Made by a program: the position numbers and the translations under genes. From Thermodesulfobacteriota bacterium (GTDB lineage: Bacteria > Desulfobacterota > Desulfobaccia > Desulfobaccales > 0-14-0-80-60-11): a stretch of DNA of 64,000 bases. A model generated the notes under the pieces. The model was not told the DNA's origin. It made no database searches and worked only from the letters and a program-made list of their open reading frames with translations. The number at the start of each line of letters is the position of its first letter. The stretch's first letter is position 1. Below are positions 14,724 to 50,616 of this stretch, piece by piece. Location of the stretch: positions 15,806 to 79,805 of the forward strand of contig JBFLXM010000012.1 of assembly GCA_040757175.1 (NCBI GenBank), given 5' to 3'.

Positions 14724-16607
14724 GTGAGTAAAAGGTTTCTTTGCGGCCTCTTGCTGGTGGTTCTTTTAGGGGCAGGGGCCGAAGCGGCCTTCCGGAACGG
14801 GTGGCTGGGGTTGGCGGAGGACTGGTATTATGACCTGTGGCATCAACTTTCCGGCCGGAGATACGAGCCCCAACAGGTGGTCATCGCGGCCATCGATGAC
14901 CAGACCCGGCTGGAGCACCAGGATGAGCCCCTGGTGTTCTGGAGCCCGCACTTTGCCCAAGCGATTGCGGTCTTGCGGCAGGCCGGGGTCAAGGTCATCG
15001 GCCTGGACGTTCTCTTTTCGGTGAGCGCCGAATCCTGGCTGCAACGGCTGCAATTGCCGGAAAGCGGCCAAAGCCGCACCTACGATTTGCCCTTCCGGGA
15101 GCAACTGGCCTCCGGGGCGGTGATCCTGGCCGGCGACCTGGCCTACGGCGCCGACGGTAAAGAAAAGGCCCTCCTGCCGCTCCCCGATTACTGGGCGGCT
15201 CTGCCGGGAAAGCTGGACGATGTGGGTTTGGTCAAGTTCTACCTTGACCCTGACGGGGTGATCCGCCGCTTTTTGCCTGCCATCCCCACGGCCGACGGGG
15301 GGGCGTGGGTCGCGTTCGGCAAGCTCTTGGCGGACCGCATGGCCGCCCCCGGCTCCGGTCCGGACCAGCCTCCCCTTTCCTTCCTAAATTTCAGCGGCCC
15401 GCCGGGCACCATCCCCCGGATTTCTTTCCGGCGGCTGCTCTTGCCGGCCGCGGCCCAGGATCCCCAGGTGCGGCGCCTCCAGGGCAAGGCGGTCATCATT
15501 GCCTATGAGGCTGCCGGCATTCAGGATCTGCACCAGACCCCTTATTCCCGGGGGTTTTTCAATATCCCGGCCCGCTTGATGAGCGGCGCGGAAGTGCATG
15601 CCAATATCGTGGAAACCATCCTCACCGGGCGCAGCCCCCGGCCGGCGGCCACCCCGTATCGGCTGGCTTACCTGGTTGCCCTCCTGGCCCTGGGCACCCT
15701 GCTGTTTTTCAGACTGGCCCCCGGGCCGGGATTGGCGGTCCTGGCGCTGTTGGCCTTGAGTGCGGCAGTCTGCGCCTTTATACTCTTCCGCAGCAATCTG
15801 CTGCTGCCAGCCGCGGTCCTCCAGGCGGGCCTGGGGCTGAGCTACCTGGGTGTTCTGGGACTGCGGCTCACCGGGGAAGAACGGGAACGCGCCCGTCTGC
15901 GGCAGATCTTTGGGCGCTATGCCTCCGAGGAAGTGGTGGAGAAGCTGCTGGCCTCGGGCCGGGAGCCTGACCTGGGAGGAGAGGCCCTGACGGTGACTGT
16001 GCTCTTTGCGGATATCCGCAATTTCACTGCCATTTCCGAGTCTCTCAACCCCCATGAAGTGGTGGAGATGCTCAACACCTATTTCAGCCGGGTGTGCGAG
16101 CCCATCCTGGCGCAAGGAGGGACGGTGGACAAGTTTATCGGCGATGCCATCATGGCGGTGTTCGGTTCGCTGGCTCCCTACCCGGATCATGCCCGCCGGG
16201 CCCTTCGGGCTGCCCTGGCGGTGGCGGCGAGGGCCAGGGAGTTCGACGCCTGGATGGCCAGGCGGTTTGTGAGCCGCGGCTTGCCGGAATTCCGTATCGG
16301 CATCGGGGTGCATACGGGTGAGGCGGTGGTGGGCAATATCGGCTCCTCCCAACGGTTTGAATTCACGGCCGTGGGCGACACGGTGAACACGGCCTCGCGT
16401 TTGGAAGGTTTGACGAAAGAGCTGGGATGGACCATCGTCGCCAGCTTTGGAACCATTGAGGCGGCTGGTCCGGGGGTGGTGACGGGCGGCCTCCGGAAAG
16501 TCCGGGTCAAGGGCCGCCAAGAAACGGTGGAGGTCCTGGAGGTCAAGGGTCTTAAGGAAGATAACCCCAGTGACATTTCTGACGGAGGGAGCGGTAATGA
16601 AGATTAA
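14724..16607 (+). CDS. CHASE2-domain class III adenylate cyclase
   Basis: N-terminal TM, CHASE2-like region (VVIAAIDD..IGLDVLF..D.DGVIRR..GAEVHANIVETIL), three TM helices, cyclase motifs LFADIRNFT, VDKFIGDAIM, FTAVGDTVNTASRLE. Confidence 0.93.
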   Translation: MSKRFLCGLLLVVLLGAGAEAAFRNGWLGLAEDWYYDLWHQLSGRRYEPQQVVIAAIDDQTRLEHQDEPLVFWSPHFAQAIAVLRQAGVKVIGLDVLFSVSAESWLQRLQLPESGQSRTYDLPFREQLASGAVILAGDLAYGADGKEKALLPLPDYWAALPGKLDDVGLVKFYLDPDGVIRRFLPAIPTADGGAWVAFGKLLADRMAAPGSGPDQPPLSFLNFSGPPGTIPRISFRRLLLPAAAQDPQVRRLQGKAVIIAYEAAGIQDLHQTPYSRGFFNIPARLMSGAEVHANIVETILTGRSPRPAATPYRLAYLVALLALGTLLFFRLAPGPGLAVLALLALSAAVCAFILFRSNLLLPAAVLQAGLGLSYLGVLGLRLTGEERERARLRQIFGRYASEEVVEKLLASGREPDLGGEALTVTVLFADIRNFTAISESLNPHEVVEMLNTYFSRVCEPILAQGGTVDKFIGDAIMAVFGSLAPYPDHARRALRAALAVAARAREFDAWMARRFVSRGLPEFRIGIGVHTGEAVVGNIGSSQRFEFTAVGDTVNTASRLEGLTKELGWTIVASFGTIEAAGPGVVTGGLRKVRVKGRQETVEVLEVKGLKEDNPSDISDGGSGNED

Positions 16608-35490: not shown

Positions 35491-36345
35491 TCAGGACGGG
35501 AGCAAGGCCAGAGAGGCTCCCACCCCCAGCCCCAGGCGCCGGGCTGCGTGCTCCTGGTTGCCGGCGATCTCCAGATAGCCGTGGCTGCCGATCAGGGCCA
35601 GGAATTCTCCGGGAGCCGTGTCTTCATACGTGGAGGAGAGGCCGGAGATGGTGCGGGAGCCGATCCGGACTACGAGTTTGCGGTCCTGGAGCCAGGGCCG
35701 GAGTTCGGAAGCCGGGATGTTGCTCACCAGATTGCCGAAGTGATCCACATAAATAATCTGGCCGTGGATCATTCCGGACTCCCGGACCGGGGCCGGGAAG
35801 GGTAGGGGCAGGGGGTCGGTGATGGGGGGGCCGAAGCTTAAGAGGTCCACTCCCAGAGAGAGATGCGCGGCCACGGCTGCGAAGATGTCCCGGCCATGGA
35901 AGGTGGCCACGACTTGCGGTCTGAAATAGCCGGCCGCGGTCAGGGAGACGATGGTCAGGTCGGAGCTCCCGGCCCAGGCCCATTGAAAGAGGCCGTTGTC
36001 CGGCCCCACCCAATAGTGGCCCCGGGCGTAAGCCGCCAGGCCCCGGCGGCCCGGGCCCACCCCCGGGTCCACCACCACCAGGTGAATGGTGCCCGGAGGG
36101 AAATAGGGAGCCGCTTGGGCCAGAATGAAAGCCCCCCTTGGAATATCCTGGGCCGGGACCTCATGGGTCACATCCACCAGCACCGCCCGGGGGTTGAGAC
36201 CCAGGATCACCCCCTTCATGGCCGCCACCTAGGCGTCCCGGACCCCGAAATCGGTAAGCAGGGTGATGATGGGCCAACTGGACTTGGGAGTAGGGTCAGG
36301 GGCCCGGGATTTCTGACCCCGTACCCCGCCGTCCCTGGCCGCCAT
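35491..36345 (-). pseudogene. SAM hydroxide adenosyltransferase / chlorinase-fluorinase family gene interrupted by an in-frame TAG at 36229-36231
   Basis: From ATG 36345: ...WPIITLLTDFGVRDA*VAAMKGVIL... then HLVVVDPGVG, VGPDNG, TFHGRDIFA, YVDHFGNLVSNI, IGSHGYLEIA. The stop replaces the usual Tyr of TDFG..D.YV. Confidence 0.8.
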
Positions 36346-36348
36346 TCC

Positions 36349-36714
36349 TCAACTCTCCAGGATTTTCTTCACTTCCTCCCGGATGCGCTCCACGGGCAGG
36401 GCCCCGGCAAAGCGGCCCTGGCCGTTGATGTATACTAGGGGAGTGGGGTAGGCCAGGGAGCAAAGCAGGGGGGTCTGGGGCAACTGGGGGCCCCGGGGGT
36501 CTTTGAGGACGTTGATGTATTCCACCGCTACTTGGCCGGGGAAGGCAGCTTCCAGGGTCAAGGCCAGGGCCCGGGTCTGAAATTCCATATTGGCCGTGGC
36601 CAGGGGATCGGCCCCCTCCTGGTGGTGATGGCCGCCGCAGCCGCAGCCGCAGTCCCCGGCCCGGGCTTGGGGCGCGTCGTAAACCACCACCTGCACTTTT
36701 TCCGGAGAAGTCAT
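36349..36714 (-). CDS. Small Cys/His-rich protein, probable thioredoxin-like fold
   Basis: VVVYD..DCGCGCGGHHH..FPGQVAVEYINV..YPTPLVYING..G.LP pattern of thioredoxin-fold metal-binding proteins. Confidence 0.6.
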   Translation of the reverse strand: MTSPEKVQVVVYDAPQARAGDCGCGCGGHHHQEGADPLATANMEFQTRALALTLEAAFPGQVAVEYINVLKDPRGPQLPQTPLLCSLAYPTPLVYINGQGRFAGALPVERIREEVKKILES

Positions 36715-36924
36715 AAACCAGCCCCCGCCATCTTTGACCATATTATTATAAAGATAATGAGCCGTTAATTACCCTAAATTCTCGCGCCGAATCCCGGAGA
36801 ACCCAACCATTTTCCCCCAGGTCCGGATATAATAAATGCTCTGGCAGGAAAAGAGGGTGCGCTCCGGCCCCCGGATGCTTAGAGTATGAACATTCTCAGG
36901 TATTAAAGATCAGGAGTGGAAGAA

Positions 36925-37767
36925 ATGGAATCGGAAATTTTAAGGGCCATTGAATTGGCCATTTCCCATGAGAACGAGGCTCGCAAGAGCTACCTGGCCC
37001 TGGCCCAGGAGAGCGACGATCCGGAGTTGCAGCGGCTGCTGCGGGAGATCGCCGCGGAGGAGGCAGGCCATGAGGCCACTCTGCGCAGCCGCCTCCGCCT
37101 CTACGAAGAGAAGCATCTGCTCCGGGATACCATTTCCCGCTACGTCAGCCCCCAGATGTGCAGCGAGATTTTAAATAACCCCGGCCTGTTGCAACTGGGG
37201 GGGGAACGCCGCAAGGTCACTGTCCTTTTTGCGGACATCAAGGGGTTCACCGCGCTTTCCGAGAAAATGGAGCCGGAAAAGGTAGTGGAGGTTCTCAACA
37301 CCTTTTTCACGGAAATGGTGGAATTGGTCTTTCAGCATCAGGGGACTTTGGATAAGTTTTTGGGAGACGCATTAATGGTGGATTTCGGGGTGCCGGTGGA
37401 AATACCCCAGGCCTCGGCCCAGGCCGTGGCCTGCGCCCTGGCCATGCATCGCCGCCTCCAAGAGATGCGGGACCAGGGGCTCACCCCCATTCAAGGAATG
37501 CGCATCGGCATCAATACCGGCGAGGCCATCGTCGGCAATATCGGCTCCCAGAAACGCATGGATTTCACGGTGATCGGCGACGCGGTCAACGTGGCCGCCC
37601 GGCTGCAGGAGCTGACCAAGGAATTGGAGGCGGACACCCTGGTGAGCGAAGCCACCTTCCGGGAAGTGGAGGGGCAGTTCTCTTTTCAGACTGTACCGCC
37701 GGTGAGATTGAGGGGCCGGAAGGAGACCACCGCGGTCTACCGCTTAACGGCTAAAGAACAGGAATGA
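36925..37767 (+). CDS. Class III adenylate cyclase with N-terminal rubrerythrin/ferritin-like half-domain
   Basis: AIELAISHENEARKSYLALA..DPELQRLLREIAAEEAGHEATL (E..A..Y / EExxH), then LFADIKGFT, LDKFLGDALM, FTVIGDAVNVAARL. Shine-Dalgarno AGGAG before ATG 36925. Confidence 0.9.
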   Translation: MESEILRAIELAISHENEARKSYLALAQESDDPELQRLLREIAAEEAGHEATLRSRLRLYEEKHLLRDTISRYVSPQMCSEILNNPGLLQLGGERRKVTVLFADIKGFTALSEKMEPEKVVEVLNTFFTEMVELVFQHQGTLDKFLGDALMVDFGVPVEIPQASAQAVACALAMHRRLQEMRDQGLTPIQGMRIGINTGEAIVGNIGSQKRMDFTVIGDAVNVAARLQELTKELEADTLVSEATFREVEGQFSFQTVPPVRLRGRKETTAVYRLTAKEQE

Positions 37768-37816
37768 TGGGGGTTTCGGGATAGGGGGGAGAATAATAAA
37801 ATTTGTGAAAAATTTA

Positions 37817-37845
37817 TTGACAATATTTTAGATATAGAATAACCT
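37817..37845 (+). promoter_or_regulatory. Sigma-70-type promoter of sat
   Basis: TTGACA (37817-22), 17-bp spacer, TAACCT (37840-45). Confidence 0.6.
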
Positions 37846-37860
37846 GAGAATCTGAATGAC

Positions 37861-37878
37861 ATGTGAAATTTTTCACAT
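37861..37878. promoter_or_regulatory. Palindromic operator upstream of sat (Rex-box; also fits CRP TGTGA-N6-TCACA)
   Basis: ATGTGAAATTTTTCACAT with perfect 8-bp arms, just downstream of the predicted -10. An extra half-site TTGTGAA lies at 37803-37809. Confidence 0.8.
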
Positions 37879-37930
37879 TTCTCTCAATCCCTAGTCTTTA
37901 ATCAAACAAAAATCCCGAGGAGGAAGATAG

Positions 37931-39160
37931 ATGGCTTTAGTAAATCCGCTTGGAAAAGAAAAGAAATTAAAACCCTTGCTGCTTTCCGCGGCCGAGATAG
38001 CCGCAGAGAAAAAGCGGGCCAAGGAACTCACCGCAGTCACCATGTCCTCCCGGGAAACGGCCGATCTCATTATGATGGGCATCGGCGGTTTTACCCCCCT
38101 GGACGGCTTCATGGGCCAGGCCGACTGGAAGGGCTCCGTGGGCGACATGAAACTCACGGACGGCACCTTCTGGCCCATCCCCGTCACCCTGTCCGTCAAC
38201 AAAGGCAAGGCCGATTCCATCAAGATCGGCCAGGAAGTGCTCCTGGTGGACGAAGAGACGGAAGAGCAGATGGGGACCATGAAGGTCACCGAAAAGTACA
38301 CCATCGACAAAGCCTGGGAGTGCAAAGAGGTCTTCACCACCAACGACATGGAGCACCCCGGCGTGCGCATGGTTATGAACCAGGAGGAAGTCAACCTGGG
38401 CGGCGTGTGCAAGGTCTGGAGCGAAGGCCCCTTCCCGAAACAGTATCCCGGCCTCTACATGCGGCCCTGGGAAACCCGGCGCATGTTCGAGGAGAAGGGC
38501 TGGAACACTATTGCCGCCCTGCAGCTCCGGAACCCCATGCACCGCTCCCACGAGTACCTGGCCAAGATCGCCATCGAGGTCTGCGACGGCCTGCTCATCC
38601 ACCAGCTCCTGGGCAAACTGAAACCCGGCGACATCCCCGCGGAAGTGCGCACCGAGGCCATCAATACCCTCACCCAGCACTACTTCGTGAAGGACACCTG
38701 CATCCAGTCCGGTTATCCCCTGGATATGCGTTACGCCGGCCCCCGGGAAGCCTTGTTCCACGCGGTCTTCCGCCAGAACTTCGGCTGCTCCCACCTCATC
38801 GTCGGCCGTGACCACGCGGGCGTGGGCGAATACTACGGTCCCTTCGACGCCCAGAAGATCTTCACCCAGATCCCCAAGGACGCCTTGGAGCTGAAACCCC
38901 TGAACATCGACTGGACCTTCTTCTGCCATAAGTGCCGGGGCATGGCCTCCATGCGCACCTGCCCCCACGGCAAGGAAGATCGCCTGATGCTCTCCGGCAC
39001 CATGCTCCGGAAGATGCTCTCCGAGGGCGGGGAAGTCCCCGCGGACTTCAGCCGTCCCGAAGTGCTGGCGGTGCTACGCAAGTACTACGCCTCTCTCACC
39101 GAGAAGGTGGAGATCAAAGTCCACGGGTTCGCCACCGGCGACATCAAACCGAATAAGTAA
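37931..39160 (+). CDS. sat: Sulfate adenylyltransferase (dissimilatory)
   Basis: [57 protein letters not shown]. Confidence 0.98.
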
Positions 39161-49536: not shown

Positions 49537-50616
49537 TCAACTTCCCGGCGCCGCCACCGAAAAAACCTTCACCGCTTGAGTCTTGCCTTTAAACTTCAAT
49601 TTTCCCTGGGGCACGATGGGGATAGCATCGTCTAAGCCTAAACGGGTATTCTCCTCAATCAAAATAGGTTCCCCGATTACCTTGGTATGGGCCTCCAGGC
49701 GGGCCGCGAGATTGACCGTATCCCCCACACAGGTATAGGTGGCCCGGCGCTGCGTGCCCACATAACCGGCAACCACCGTGCCGGAGGCGATGCCGATGCC
49801 GATCCGGATCTGCACCCGATGCAAACGGGTCTGTTCTTGATTGAACTGATCGATGAGTTCCATCATCCGCCGGGCGGCGCGCACTGCCCGGCGGCGGTGA
49901 TCCGGCAGCGCCAACGGCGCTCCGAAGATGCACATCAAGCCGTCGCCCATCATTTGGTTGACGATTCCCCCCTCATCGGCGATGGCATCAAACATCAAGG
50001 AAAAGTAGGCATTCAACAATCCGATGGTTTCTTCCGGAGATTGTGATTCGGCGATGGTGGTAAAGGAGCGGATGTCGCTGAAAAGAACCGTGGCCTCCAC
50101 CAGCCTGCCGCCCAGGGAGAAGCCCGAGTTCAACAGCTCTTCCGCCACTTCGTCGGTGGCAAACTTGCGAAACAGGGCCCGCTGCTCATCCTGCAGGCGT
50201 TTTTTCTCCAGGCAGGCATCGACCCGGGCCTTCAGCAGGATGGGATTGAAAGGTTTGTTCAAATAATCCGCGGCCCCCATCTCGATGCACTTGACAACAC
50301 TATCGATTTCCTCCACCGCGGAGATCATGATCACCGGAATTTGGCGCCAGTGAACGTCGGCGGCCAGGTGCGCCAACACCTGATAACCATTCATTTCCGG
50401 CATTTCGATATCCAGCAGGATCAGATCGAAGTCTTGATGGCCCAACAGCTCCAAGGCCTGCCGGCCATTTTCGGCGAAGGCCACCTGATGTCCCTGCTGT
50501 TCCAGACCCCGGGCCAGCATCAAGCGGTTCATGCGATTATCATCCACCACCAGGATGGAACCCGTGAGTTTCTGTTTTTCTTCCGGCGTCGTTTTATCTG
50601 AGCTTTGGCCAGTCAT
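49537..50616 (-). CDS. Response regulator (REC) fused to a class III nucleotidyl cyclase
   Basis: ILVVDDN, LLDIEMP, YLNKPF, then [34 protein letters not shown]. Confidence 0.92.

Follow-up and report, generated by a model that had tools for sequence, protein, structure and literature searches.

A half-ferritin hairpin fused to a class IIIb adenylate cyclase in an order of sulfate reducers

Introduction

In encapsulated ferritins (EncFtn), two monomers meet around a two-fold axis and contribute identical ligands to a ferroxidase center at their interface; in the R. rubrum protein, E32, Y39, E62, and H65 are the residues of this center that coordinate iron (PMC11202242). EncFtn dimers are antiparallel, their interface is weak and forms on iron binding, and their sites also take other divalent metals, with Zn acting as an inhibitor (PMC11202242). 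Di-iron chemistry is also used for signaling: the activity of the hemerythrin-GGDEF protein Bhr-DGC is set by its diferrous or diferric state and is 10-fold higher when diferrous, and another hemerythrin sensor, DcrH, comes from a sulfate reducer (PMC9388753). Here we describe a gene that joins one EncFtn-like helical hairpin, half of a ferritin-type domain, to a class III adenylate cyclase domain immediately upstream of sat. It lies in a 64,000-nucleotide stretch of DNA (the window) from a Thermodesulfobacteriota bacterium of the order Desulfobaccales (assembly GCA_040757175.1, contig JBFLXM010000012.1, positions 15,806 to 79,805, forward strand).

Class III cyclases act as homodimers with two active sites at the interface, and in the solved examples a transducer segment follows a parallel coiled coil. 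These enzymes are abundant in environmental anaerobes, and their inputs are mostly unknown. In the genome studied here, we counted 11 domains of this class; the window accounts for three, including two at ~15990-16424 and 49570-50097. The protein described below would be a minimal soluble enzyme with one chemically interpretable sensor, kept across a whole order of sulfate reducers that presumably includes a cultured representative. A prior reading of the window from its letters alone (the sequence-only reading) had pointed out the fusion, proposed that a homodimer completes its iron site, and stated that no characterized protein of this architecture was known. Our literature searches likewise turned up no characterized protein combining a half-ferritin with a cyclase.

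Results

A two-domain protein with one half of a ferritin-like fold

The open reading frame (ORF) starts with ATG, has an AGGAG 8 nt 5' of it, and encodes 280 residues (Table 1). Pfam placed PF02915 (Rubrerythrin) on residues 9-65 (37.4 bits, cut-off 22.8) and PF00211 (Guanylate_cyc) on residues 96-270 (E = 4e-31, 108.5 bits, cut-off 21.9). Of the 137 positions in the PF02915 profile, the match spans just 3-61, corresponding to a single helix pair and thus one half of the domain. Pfam found no third domain in the protein, and neither a rubredoxin nor another electron-donor domain. Mean Kyte-Doolittle hydropathy in a 19-residue window peaked at 1.14, so that a membrane segment is not indicated and the protein appears to be soluble. 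The gene ends 163 bp before the start of sat, with both genes on the plus strand. The sequence-only reading had described a soluble protein in this position and a half-domain fused to a cyclase; the ORF positions and hydropathy bear out the former, and the Pfam matches, the predicted hairpin, and the conservation described below bear out the latter.

The hairpin carries the ligand set of encapsulated ferritins

AlphaFold2 modeled the N-terminal region (N-domain) as a hairpin, with helix 1 at residues 2-29, a turn at D31-D32-P33, and helix 2 at residues 33-62/71. The predicted local distance difference test score (pLDDT) of the hairpin was 92.8 as an isolated domain and 72-85 inside the full chain. 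Helix 1 bears the motif E16-x2-A19-x3-Y23 and helix 2 the motif E45-E46-A-G-H49. The sequence-only reading had written the first of these as 'E..A..Y', which named residues that are present but gave their spacing loosely. The residues that it took for di-iron-type ligands are conserved, as the pattern E-x6-Y-x22-E-x2-H was intact in 38/38 homologs from 17 genera. Counted from E16, the Tyr, Glu, and His fall at +7, +30, and +33, as in the EncFtn ferroxidase set. Mean column identity was higher in the N-domain (87%) than over the whole protein (78%).

A profile of the N-domain, searched against the PDB, matched both halves of the four-helix rubrerythrin-like protein 2fzf (3e-8), and also 2oh3, M. 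xanthus EncB (8e-5), and P. furiosus encapsulated ferritin (2e-4). A weaker match was to 5da5, from R. rubrum and also an encapsulated ferritin, with query residues 12-58 aligned to chain residues 28-74; this alignment is gapless, with an offset of +16, and places E16/Y23/E46/H49 on E32/Y39/E62/H65. Foldseek ranked EncB, EncC, and three encapsulated ferritins first in the PDB, with template-modeling (TM) scores of 0.7-0.8, deviations of ~1-2 Å, 22-31% identity, and E-values that were weak, as expected for a 72-residue hairpin. By analogy, the closest matches in both sequence and structure thus offer a solved precedent for the proposal that a homodimer could complete the site (PMC11202242).

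A full four-helix bundle would carry two E...ExxH pairs in one chain; here, just two helices precede the cyclase, and they bear a single Ex6Y...ExxH pair. At its C-terminus the hairpin leads into the cyclase, in the place where encapsulated ferritins would have a targeting peptide, and the source genome has no match to an encapsulin shell gene (PF04454), so that we rejected a role as encapsulin cargo. The N-domain profile gave one match in that genome, so a second half-ferritin paralog that could serve as a pairing partner is absent. The 'erythrin' domain of MbfA/VIT1 was considered as a precedent for a fused half-ferritin and rejected, as it has been described as a complete four-helix domain (PMC7714665). 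A weak NCBIfam match of our protein to MbfA/VIT1 covers the second half of the erythrin domain only.

The cyclase domain has a complete catalytic set

Alignments of the segment between the two domains showed invariant residues at R54-Y60 ('RSRLRLY'), R67, T69, and R72-P76. Residues 66-95 align with the pre-catalytic segment of the phytochrome-cyclase 6fht. As this alignment begins at L66, helix 2 would pass almost directly into a transducer-like segment; the pLDDT of the connector was low in the AlphaFold2 monomer model.

In the catalytic domain, D104 and D148 are the predicted metal ligands, K144 and T215 the substrate-specifying residues, and N222 and R226 the transition-state residues. All six are invariant in a 19-sequence alignment and present in 2 further sequences, in agreement with the sequence-only reading, which had found every catalytic and ATP-specifying residue in place. 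Among solved structures, the nearest chains are those of Synechocystis Cya2 (2w01) and its fusion to a phytochrome (6fht), followed in our list by P. aeruginosa CyaB (3r5g) and Spirulina CyaC (1wc0). K144 aligns to the Lys of 6fht (DKF), and the Cya2 sequence in 2w01 has DEF at this place. The Lys/Thr pair, with Thr215 and not Asp at the second specificity position, reads as the class IIIb adenylate-cyclase signature. Because all six catalytic and substrate residues are invariant, we expect an active adenylate cyclase.

The fusion is kept across an order, and the hairpin recurs on a histidine kinase

Proteins with the identical two-domain architecture form >120 clusters at >=75% identity. The named members come from Desulfobaccales / Thermodesulfobacteriota metagenome-assembled genomes and are annotated just as 'adenylate/guanylate cyclase domain-containing protein'. 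In profile searches of the order, 81/83 species genomes had one copy of the N-domain, with E-values of 1e-32 to 1e-43 that make a chance match unlikely, and the ORF bearing it was ~280-330 residues long. Coverage was complete among the high-quality genomes (58/58) and genera (17/17), which belong to 2 families.

We also searched a 401-genome sample of the phylum. We found no cyclase fusion of this kind in the ~385 genomes from outside the order, and N-domain scores dropped there from 1e-32 to 5.6e-11 or weaker. Matches outside the order were generic rubrerythrin- or encapsulated-ferritin-like proteins, plus a fusion to a histidine kinase. The latter was the best of them: a similar hairpin, with the same Ex6Y...ExxH ligands, stands N-terminal to a soluble HisKA + HATPase_c kinase, joined to it by a ~25-residue Pro/Gly/Glu-rich linker and a coiled coil. 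This protein is rare, being found in two genomes of another family of the phylum and in two clusters of the protein database. Among 1.84 billion representatives at 50% identity, the N-domain was found in two other clusters only. A separate, word-indexed search with the N-domain alone gave just close relatives and says little about distant fusions. The occurrence of the half-domain before two different signaling outputs, both obligate dimers, argues for a role as a sensor.

Adjacency to sat is a trait of one family

The genes 3' of the cyclase are sat, then aprB, aprA, and qmoA. We refer to the family in which the cyclase lies beside sat as f1, and to its sister family in the same order as f2. 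In family f1, the cyclase is immediately 5' of sat-aprBA-qmoA at every sufficiently long locus, among them a genome per genus for 13/13 genera sampled. The genes on its other side differ, being rplM-rpsI-argC-truA in one genus and the divergent 130-residue gene of Table 1 in others. Family f2 (three genera, seven genomes) keeps the cyclase with its ligands intact but away from sat; in a closed f2 genome the two genes are 630 kb apart, and we found no conserved neighbor of the cyclase in this family. Thus, adjacency to sat is a stable trait of one family and not of the cyclase gene itself. The sequence-only reading had described a source of cyclic AMP (cAMP) next to sulfate-respiration genes and suggested synteny with sat as a check: both fit family f1, and neither fits family f2, where the gene is elsewhere. 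Within that one family, the place 5' of sat-aprBA-qmo has been inherited and may reflect a functional tie to sulfate activation; for sulfate respiration, a tie is plausible only at the level of family synteny.

Features of the half-ferritin cyclase locus and of the hairpin-kinase fusion. Positions are those of the window except in the last two rows, which give positions in the named loci.

Table 1
Feature	Position	Strand	Basis or remark
Half-ferritin/class IIIb adenylate cyclase gene	36925..37767	+	ORF and translation, Pfam; stop codon included
Two-helix half-ferritin hairpin	36928..37110	+	AlphaFold2, Foldseek, PDB profile search, motif conservation
Candidate iron ligand E16	36970-36972	+	Motif, alignment to 5da5
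Candidate iron ligand Y23	36991-36993	+	Motif, alignment to 5da5
Candidate iron ligand E46	37060-37062	+	Motif, alignment to 5da5
Candidate iron ligand H49	37069-37071	+	Motif, alignment to 5da5
Connector / cyclase-transducer-like segment, residues 63-95 (...EKHLLRDTISRYVSPQMCSEILNNPGLLQLGGERR)	37111..37209	+	Alignments
Class III (IIIb) cyclase catalytic domain, residues 96-270	37210..37734	+	PF00211, invariant residues
sat promoter-like element: TTGACA (37817-37822), 17-nt spacer, TAACCT (37840-37845)	37817..37845	+	
Operator-like palindrome ATGTGAAATTTTTCACAT	37861..37878	.	3' of -10 hexamer, 5' of sat ribosome-binding site
sat (ATP sulfurylase)	37931..39160	+	Pfam PUA_2 and ATP-sulfurylase; synteny; first gene of sat-aprBA-qmoABC block
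Divergent 130-residue gene	36349-36741	-	Kept beside cyclase in several family f1 genera
Conserved intergenic element AAATT(C/T)TCGCGCC...GAACCCAAC.ATTTTCCC	36776-36818		Between 130-residue gene and cyclase
SAM (S-adenosylmethionine) hydroxide adenosyltransferase gene	35491-36345	-	SAM_HAT_N and SAM_HAT_C
Hairpin-histidine kinase, genome G293	L035:619-1638	-	
Hairpin-histidine kinase, genome G349	L036:870-2045	+	

Some further features of these loci were seen. The sat slot of family f1 holds two unrelated-looking types of 409 and 425 residues with ~31% identity (loci L040, L043, L044, L047, L048, L050, and L051 versus L039, L041, L042, L045, L046, and L049), which reads as an in-place replacement of ATP sulfurylase between the cyclase and aprBA. 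The 130-residue protein has a Cys/His-rich N-terminus (GDCGCGCGGHHHQE) and a C-terminal half that is possibly thioredoxin-like; it had no Pfam or NCBIfam match, and its best PDB match was weak, a thioredoxin at E = 0.015. The intergenic element was found in 8/9 related loci examined. Read from its upstream ATG, the SAM hydroxide adenosyltransferase gene is interrupted by one in-frame stop, which is why the ORF list starts it at 36228.

The palindrome before sat probably belongs to Rex

The TTGACA hexamer of the sat promoter-like element and its spacing are kept in all related loci, and the -10 hexamer matches the consensus at 3/6 positions. A consensus promoter and terminator scan of 36300-38000 made no calls; that the sat promoter was missed is attributable to this -10 hexamer, and we infer the promoter only from the conserved TTGACA and spacing. 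With neither a promoter nor a terminator called, read-through from the cyclase gene into sat is possible.

The palindrome that follows is a perfect TGTGA-N6-TCACA, the sole one in the 4.12-Mb genome, and is kept before sat in family f1. The sat promoters of family f2 have a degenerate version, TCGTGCTAACATTCACGA, in the same place after TATAAA, with no adjacent cyclase. The consensus for Rex is TTGTGAA-N4-TTCACAA, which the f1 palindrome fits at 16/18 positions, and the source genome has a Rex homolog with Put_DNA-bind_N and CoA_binding domains. In D. vulgaris, Rex is a demonstrated NADH-responsive repressor of sat (PMC7531388). A CRP/HcpR1 consensus has also been predicted before sat in Desulfovibrio, where HcpR1 binding was weakly confirmed (PMC545781, PMC5701242).

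The genome encodes two CRP/FNR-type (HTH_Crp_2) proteins, with the recognition helices ISETLSR and THETFYR. They have Ser or His at the position of Arg180 of CRP/HcpR and are missing the Arg that binds the phosphate of cyclic nucleotide monophosphates (cNMPs). No CRP-family regulator combining an R-E-x-x-x-R helix with a cNMP cassette (FGE...R[ST]A) was found in the genome, and the two proteins with the canonical cassette both lack a DNA-binding domain. Given the Rex gene, the absence of a matching CRP, the f2 operator without a cyclase, and a location typical of repressor sites, 3' of the -10 hexamer, the palindrome is probably a Rex operator of sat, separate from the cyclase protein. We dropped cAMP-CRP control of sat through the palindrome as a lead, and sat is best explained as being controlled from its own predicted promoter and Rex-type operator. 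A functional link to sulfate respiration, as the sequence-only reading had drawn it, thus comes down to adjacency; as the simplest reading of the CRP-like site before sat is a Rex operator, adjacency alone is no proof that cAMP controls sulfate respiration.

Against the 11 cyclase domains of the genome stand just two proteins whose phosphate-binding cassette is canonical. One is a membrane protein encoded outside the window (G000:C4:79098-80558, minus strand) with cNMP-binding (FGE...RTA), rhodanese-like, and MauE/DoxX domains, which makes it a candidate cAMP receptor with a sulfur-related flavor. The other is a stand-alone cNMP-binding protein at G000:C77:203-847.

Discussion

The half-ferritin cyclase is a real, conserved, and uncharacterized protein, a variant of both the sensor-coupled class III cyclases and the di-iron sensors. 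We propose that it is a soluble class IIIb adenylate cyclase whose sole sensor is the EncFtn-like hairpin, switched by iron or an oxidant through pairing, and regard this proposal as about as likely as not. One hairpin would supply half of a di-iron site, comprising one bidentate Glu, one bridging Glu, one His, and a nearby Tyr, so that a complete site would require two hairpins to come together, inside the obligate cyclase homodimer or across two dimers. Binding of Fe(II), its oxidation in the site by O2 or H2O2, or both, would alter how the two N-termini hold together. The connector, which is short and invariant ('LRSRLRLY...LR.T..RYVSP'), would then relay the changed pairing to the catalytic dimer and so raise or lower cAMP synthesis. 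In this proposal we infer the binding of metal, the signal sensed, the sign of regulation, and the pairing geometry.

Several observations weigh against the proposal. The curated NCBIfam models of encapsulated ferritins (TIGR04535, NF058679) score the hairpin far below their cut-offs, at 31.4 versus 90 bits for EncB_fam and 23 versus 125 for ferrit_encaps. With no shell gene in the genome either, the N-domain falls outside the encapsulated-ferritin family proper, which it appears to resemble in its likely working mode. The positions of the secondary metal site, H15 and E18, are not kept in one genus, and the conserved metal site could be purely structural. Finally, a single cyclase dimer may accommodate a canonical ferritin-type bundle only under strain or not at all, because EncFtn dimers are antiparallel (PMC11202242) and here there is almost no spacer before a transducer-like segment of a kind that follows parallel helices. 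There are three routes by which a site might form: as a non-canonical parallel bundle, between two cyclase dimers, or at the cost of the active arrangement, with the metal clamping the enzyme in an off state.

More speculatively, and in our view rather less likely than not, the switch may be the split two-chain di-iron site itself, with Fe(II), O2, or H2O2 making or breaking an EncFtn-type interface and thereby setting cAMP throughout the order. It would also tune sulfate activation in family f1 to the iron or oxidant status of the cell, and with its recurrence on a histidine kinase the hairpin would be a general sensor module that had so far escaped recognition. The N-termini might flip between a parallel active and an antiparallel metal-clamped state, or iron might drive the assembly of cyclase dimers into higher oligomers.

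The hairpin might instead be a mere dimerization or stabilizing module with a structural metal, leaving the cyclase constitutive or regulated otherwise, for example by bicarbonate/CO2 like other class IIIb enzymes. The class IIIb signature (Thr215 as the second of the substrate-specifying residues), the need of class III cyclases to dimerize in a protein with no further domain, and the varied contexts of the gene in family f2, as for a housekeeping cAMP source, all suit this explanation. A plain helix pair, however, would have no need to keep four iron-type ligands invariant, and exactly in ferroxidase spacing, across 17 genera; the hairpin recurs on a histidine kinase; and the weak, iron-dependent EncFtn interface (PMC11202242) fits a switch better than a permanent clamp. 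We therefore consider a purely structural role unlikely. That the N-domain senses something else, be it Mn, Zn, or Co, nitric oxide, or an anion held by R54/R56/R58/R67/R72, such as sulfate, adenosine 5'-phosphosulfate (APS), or pyrophosphate, seems to us quite doubtful. E/Y/E/H is the classic di-iron ferroxidase set, the N-domain has no known anion-binding motif, and family f2 has the same Arg residues without the adjacency to sat. Even so, none of the sequences examined departs from 'LRSRLRLY' or from R67/R72, divalent metals other than iron can occupy encapsulated-ferritin sites, with inhibition by Zn (PMC11202242), and sensing of sulfate, APS, or pyrophosphate would suit a location beside sat that is held in all 13 f1 genera and survives the in-situ swap of sat type.

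A dedicated signal source for the sulfate-activation genes, with cAMP acting through a CRP-family regulator on TGTGA-N6-TCACA, would account for the presence of cyclase and palindrome together at every f1 locus, and in Desulfovibrio sites of this type are bound by HcpR1, a member of the CRP family, with weak binding at sat (PMC545781, PMC5701242). We think this very unlikely. The palindrome fits the Rex consensus equally and a Rex gene is present, with Rex repressing sat in D. vulgaris (PMC7531388); both CRP/FNR-type proteins lack Arg180 and the phosphate-binding Arg, neither of the canonical cNMP binders has a DNA-binding domain, the sat promoters of family f2 bear a related operator in the corresponding place with no cyclase beside it, and the palindrome sits where a repressor would. 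Encapsulated ferritins and rubrerythrins with the same ligand set are enzymes (PMC11202242), and the N-domain might be a catalytic ferroxidase or peroxidase that detoxifies Fe(II) or H2O2, the fusion just co-localizing two activities. With no storage shell, no rubredoxin or other electron-donor domain, a single-copy protein of signaling type, and a parallel fusion to a histidine kinase, this is highly improbable.

If an iron- or oxidant-switched hairpin is indeed the sensor, iron- or oxidant-dependent assembly of a half-ferritin interface would be a sensing principle distinct from hemerythrin, heme, and Fe-S sensors. It would also give a handle on how strict anaerobes report exposure to iron or oxygen through cAMP. 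The sulfide made by sulfate reducers continuously strips iron.

Comparison with known systems

The encapsulated ferritins (R. rubrum Rru_A0973, those of H. ochraceum and P. furiosus, and M. xanthus EncB/EncC) are two-helix half-ferritin hairpins like the one described here, with identical spacing of the ferroxidase residues, and they supply the top sequence-profile and Foldseek matches to the N-domain. The cyclase hairpin differs in lacking the C-terminal targeting peptide and the third/fourth short helix, in the absence of a shell gene, in scoring under the NCBIfam family cut-offs, and in an identity of only ~22-31%. Since its C-terminus runs into the cyclase, a decameric ring like that of EncFtn is unlikely. 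The rubrerythrin-like COG1633 proteins (2fzf, 2oh3) and the MbfA/VIT1 erythrin domain belong to the same superfamily and have the same Ex6Y/ExxH motifs (PMC7714665), but carry both helix pairs in one chain, unlike the half-domain here, and the erythrin domain of MbfA sits on a membrane transporter rather than a soluble cyclase.

The sat promoter of D. vulgaris has an inverted repeat of the TTGTGAA-N4-TTCACAA type, and Rex represses sat in this species (PMC7531388). NADH-sensitive Rex binding has been shown in D. vulgaris only, whereas the palindrome here is a predicted site that also fits the CRP/HcpR1 consensus.

Class IIIb cyclases with N-terminal sensors (Spirulina CyaC, P. aeruginosa CyaB, Synechocystis Cya2-type cores, and bPAC) have catalytic domains 35-50% identical to this one, the same Lys/Thr, Asp/Asp, and Asn/Arg sets, and a transducer-like 'RYVSP...LGGE.R' before strand 1. 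They use GAF, PAS, BLUF, HAMP, or phytochrome sensors, in contrast to the 62-residue half-ferritin found here, which comes with almost no coiled-coil spacer. A parallel in sensing chemistry is with the hemerythrin di-iron sensors (V. cholerae Bhr-DGC, Ferrovum Bhr-HD-GYP, and D. vulgaris DcrH), in which a non-heme di-iron domain is joined to a dimeric second-messenger or chemotaxis output. Whereas these proteins act on c-di-GMP or chemotaxis, the half-ferritin cyclase is predicted to produce cAMP, and its di-iron site would be split over two chains.

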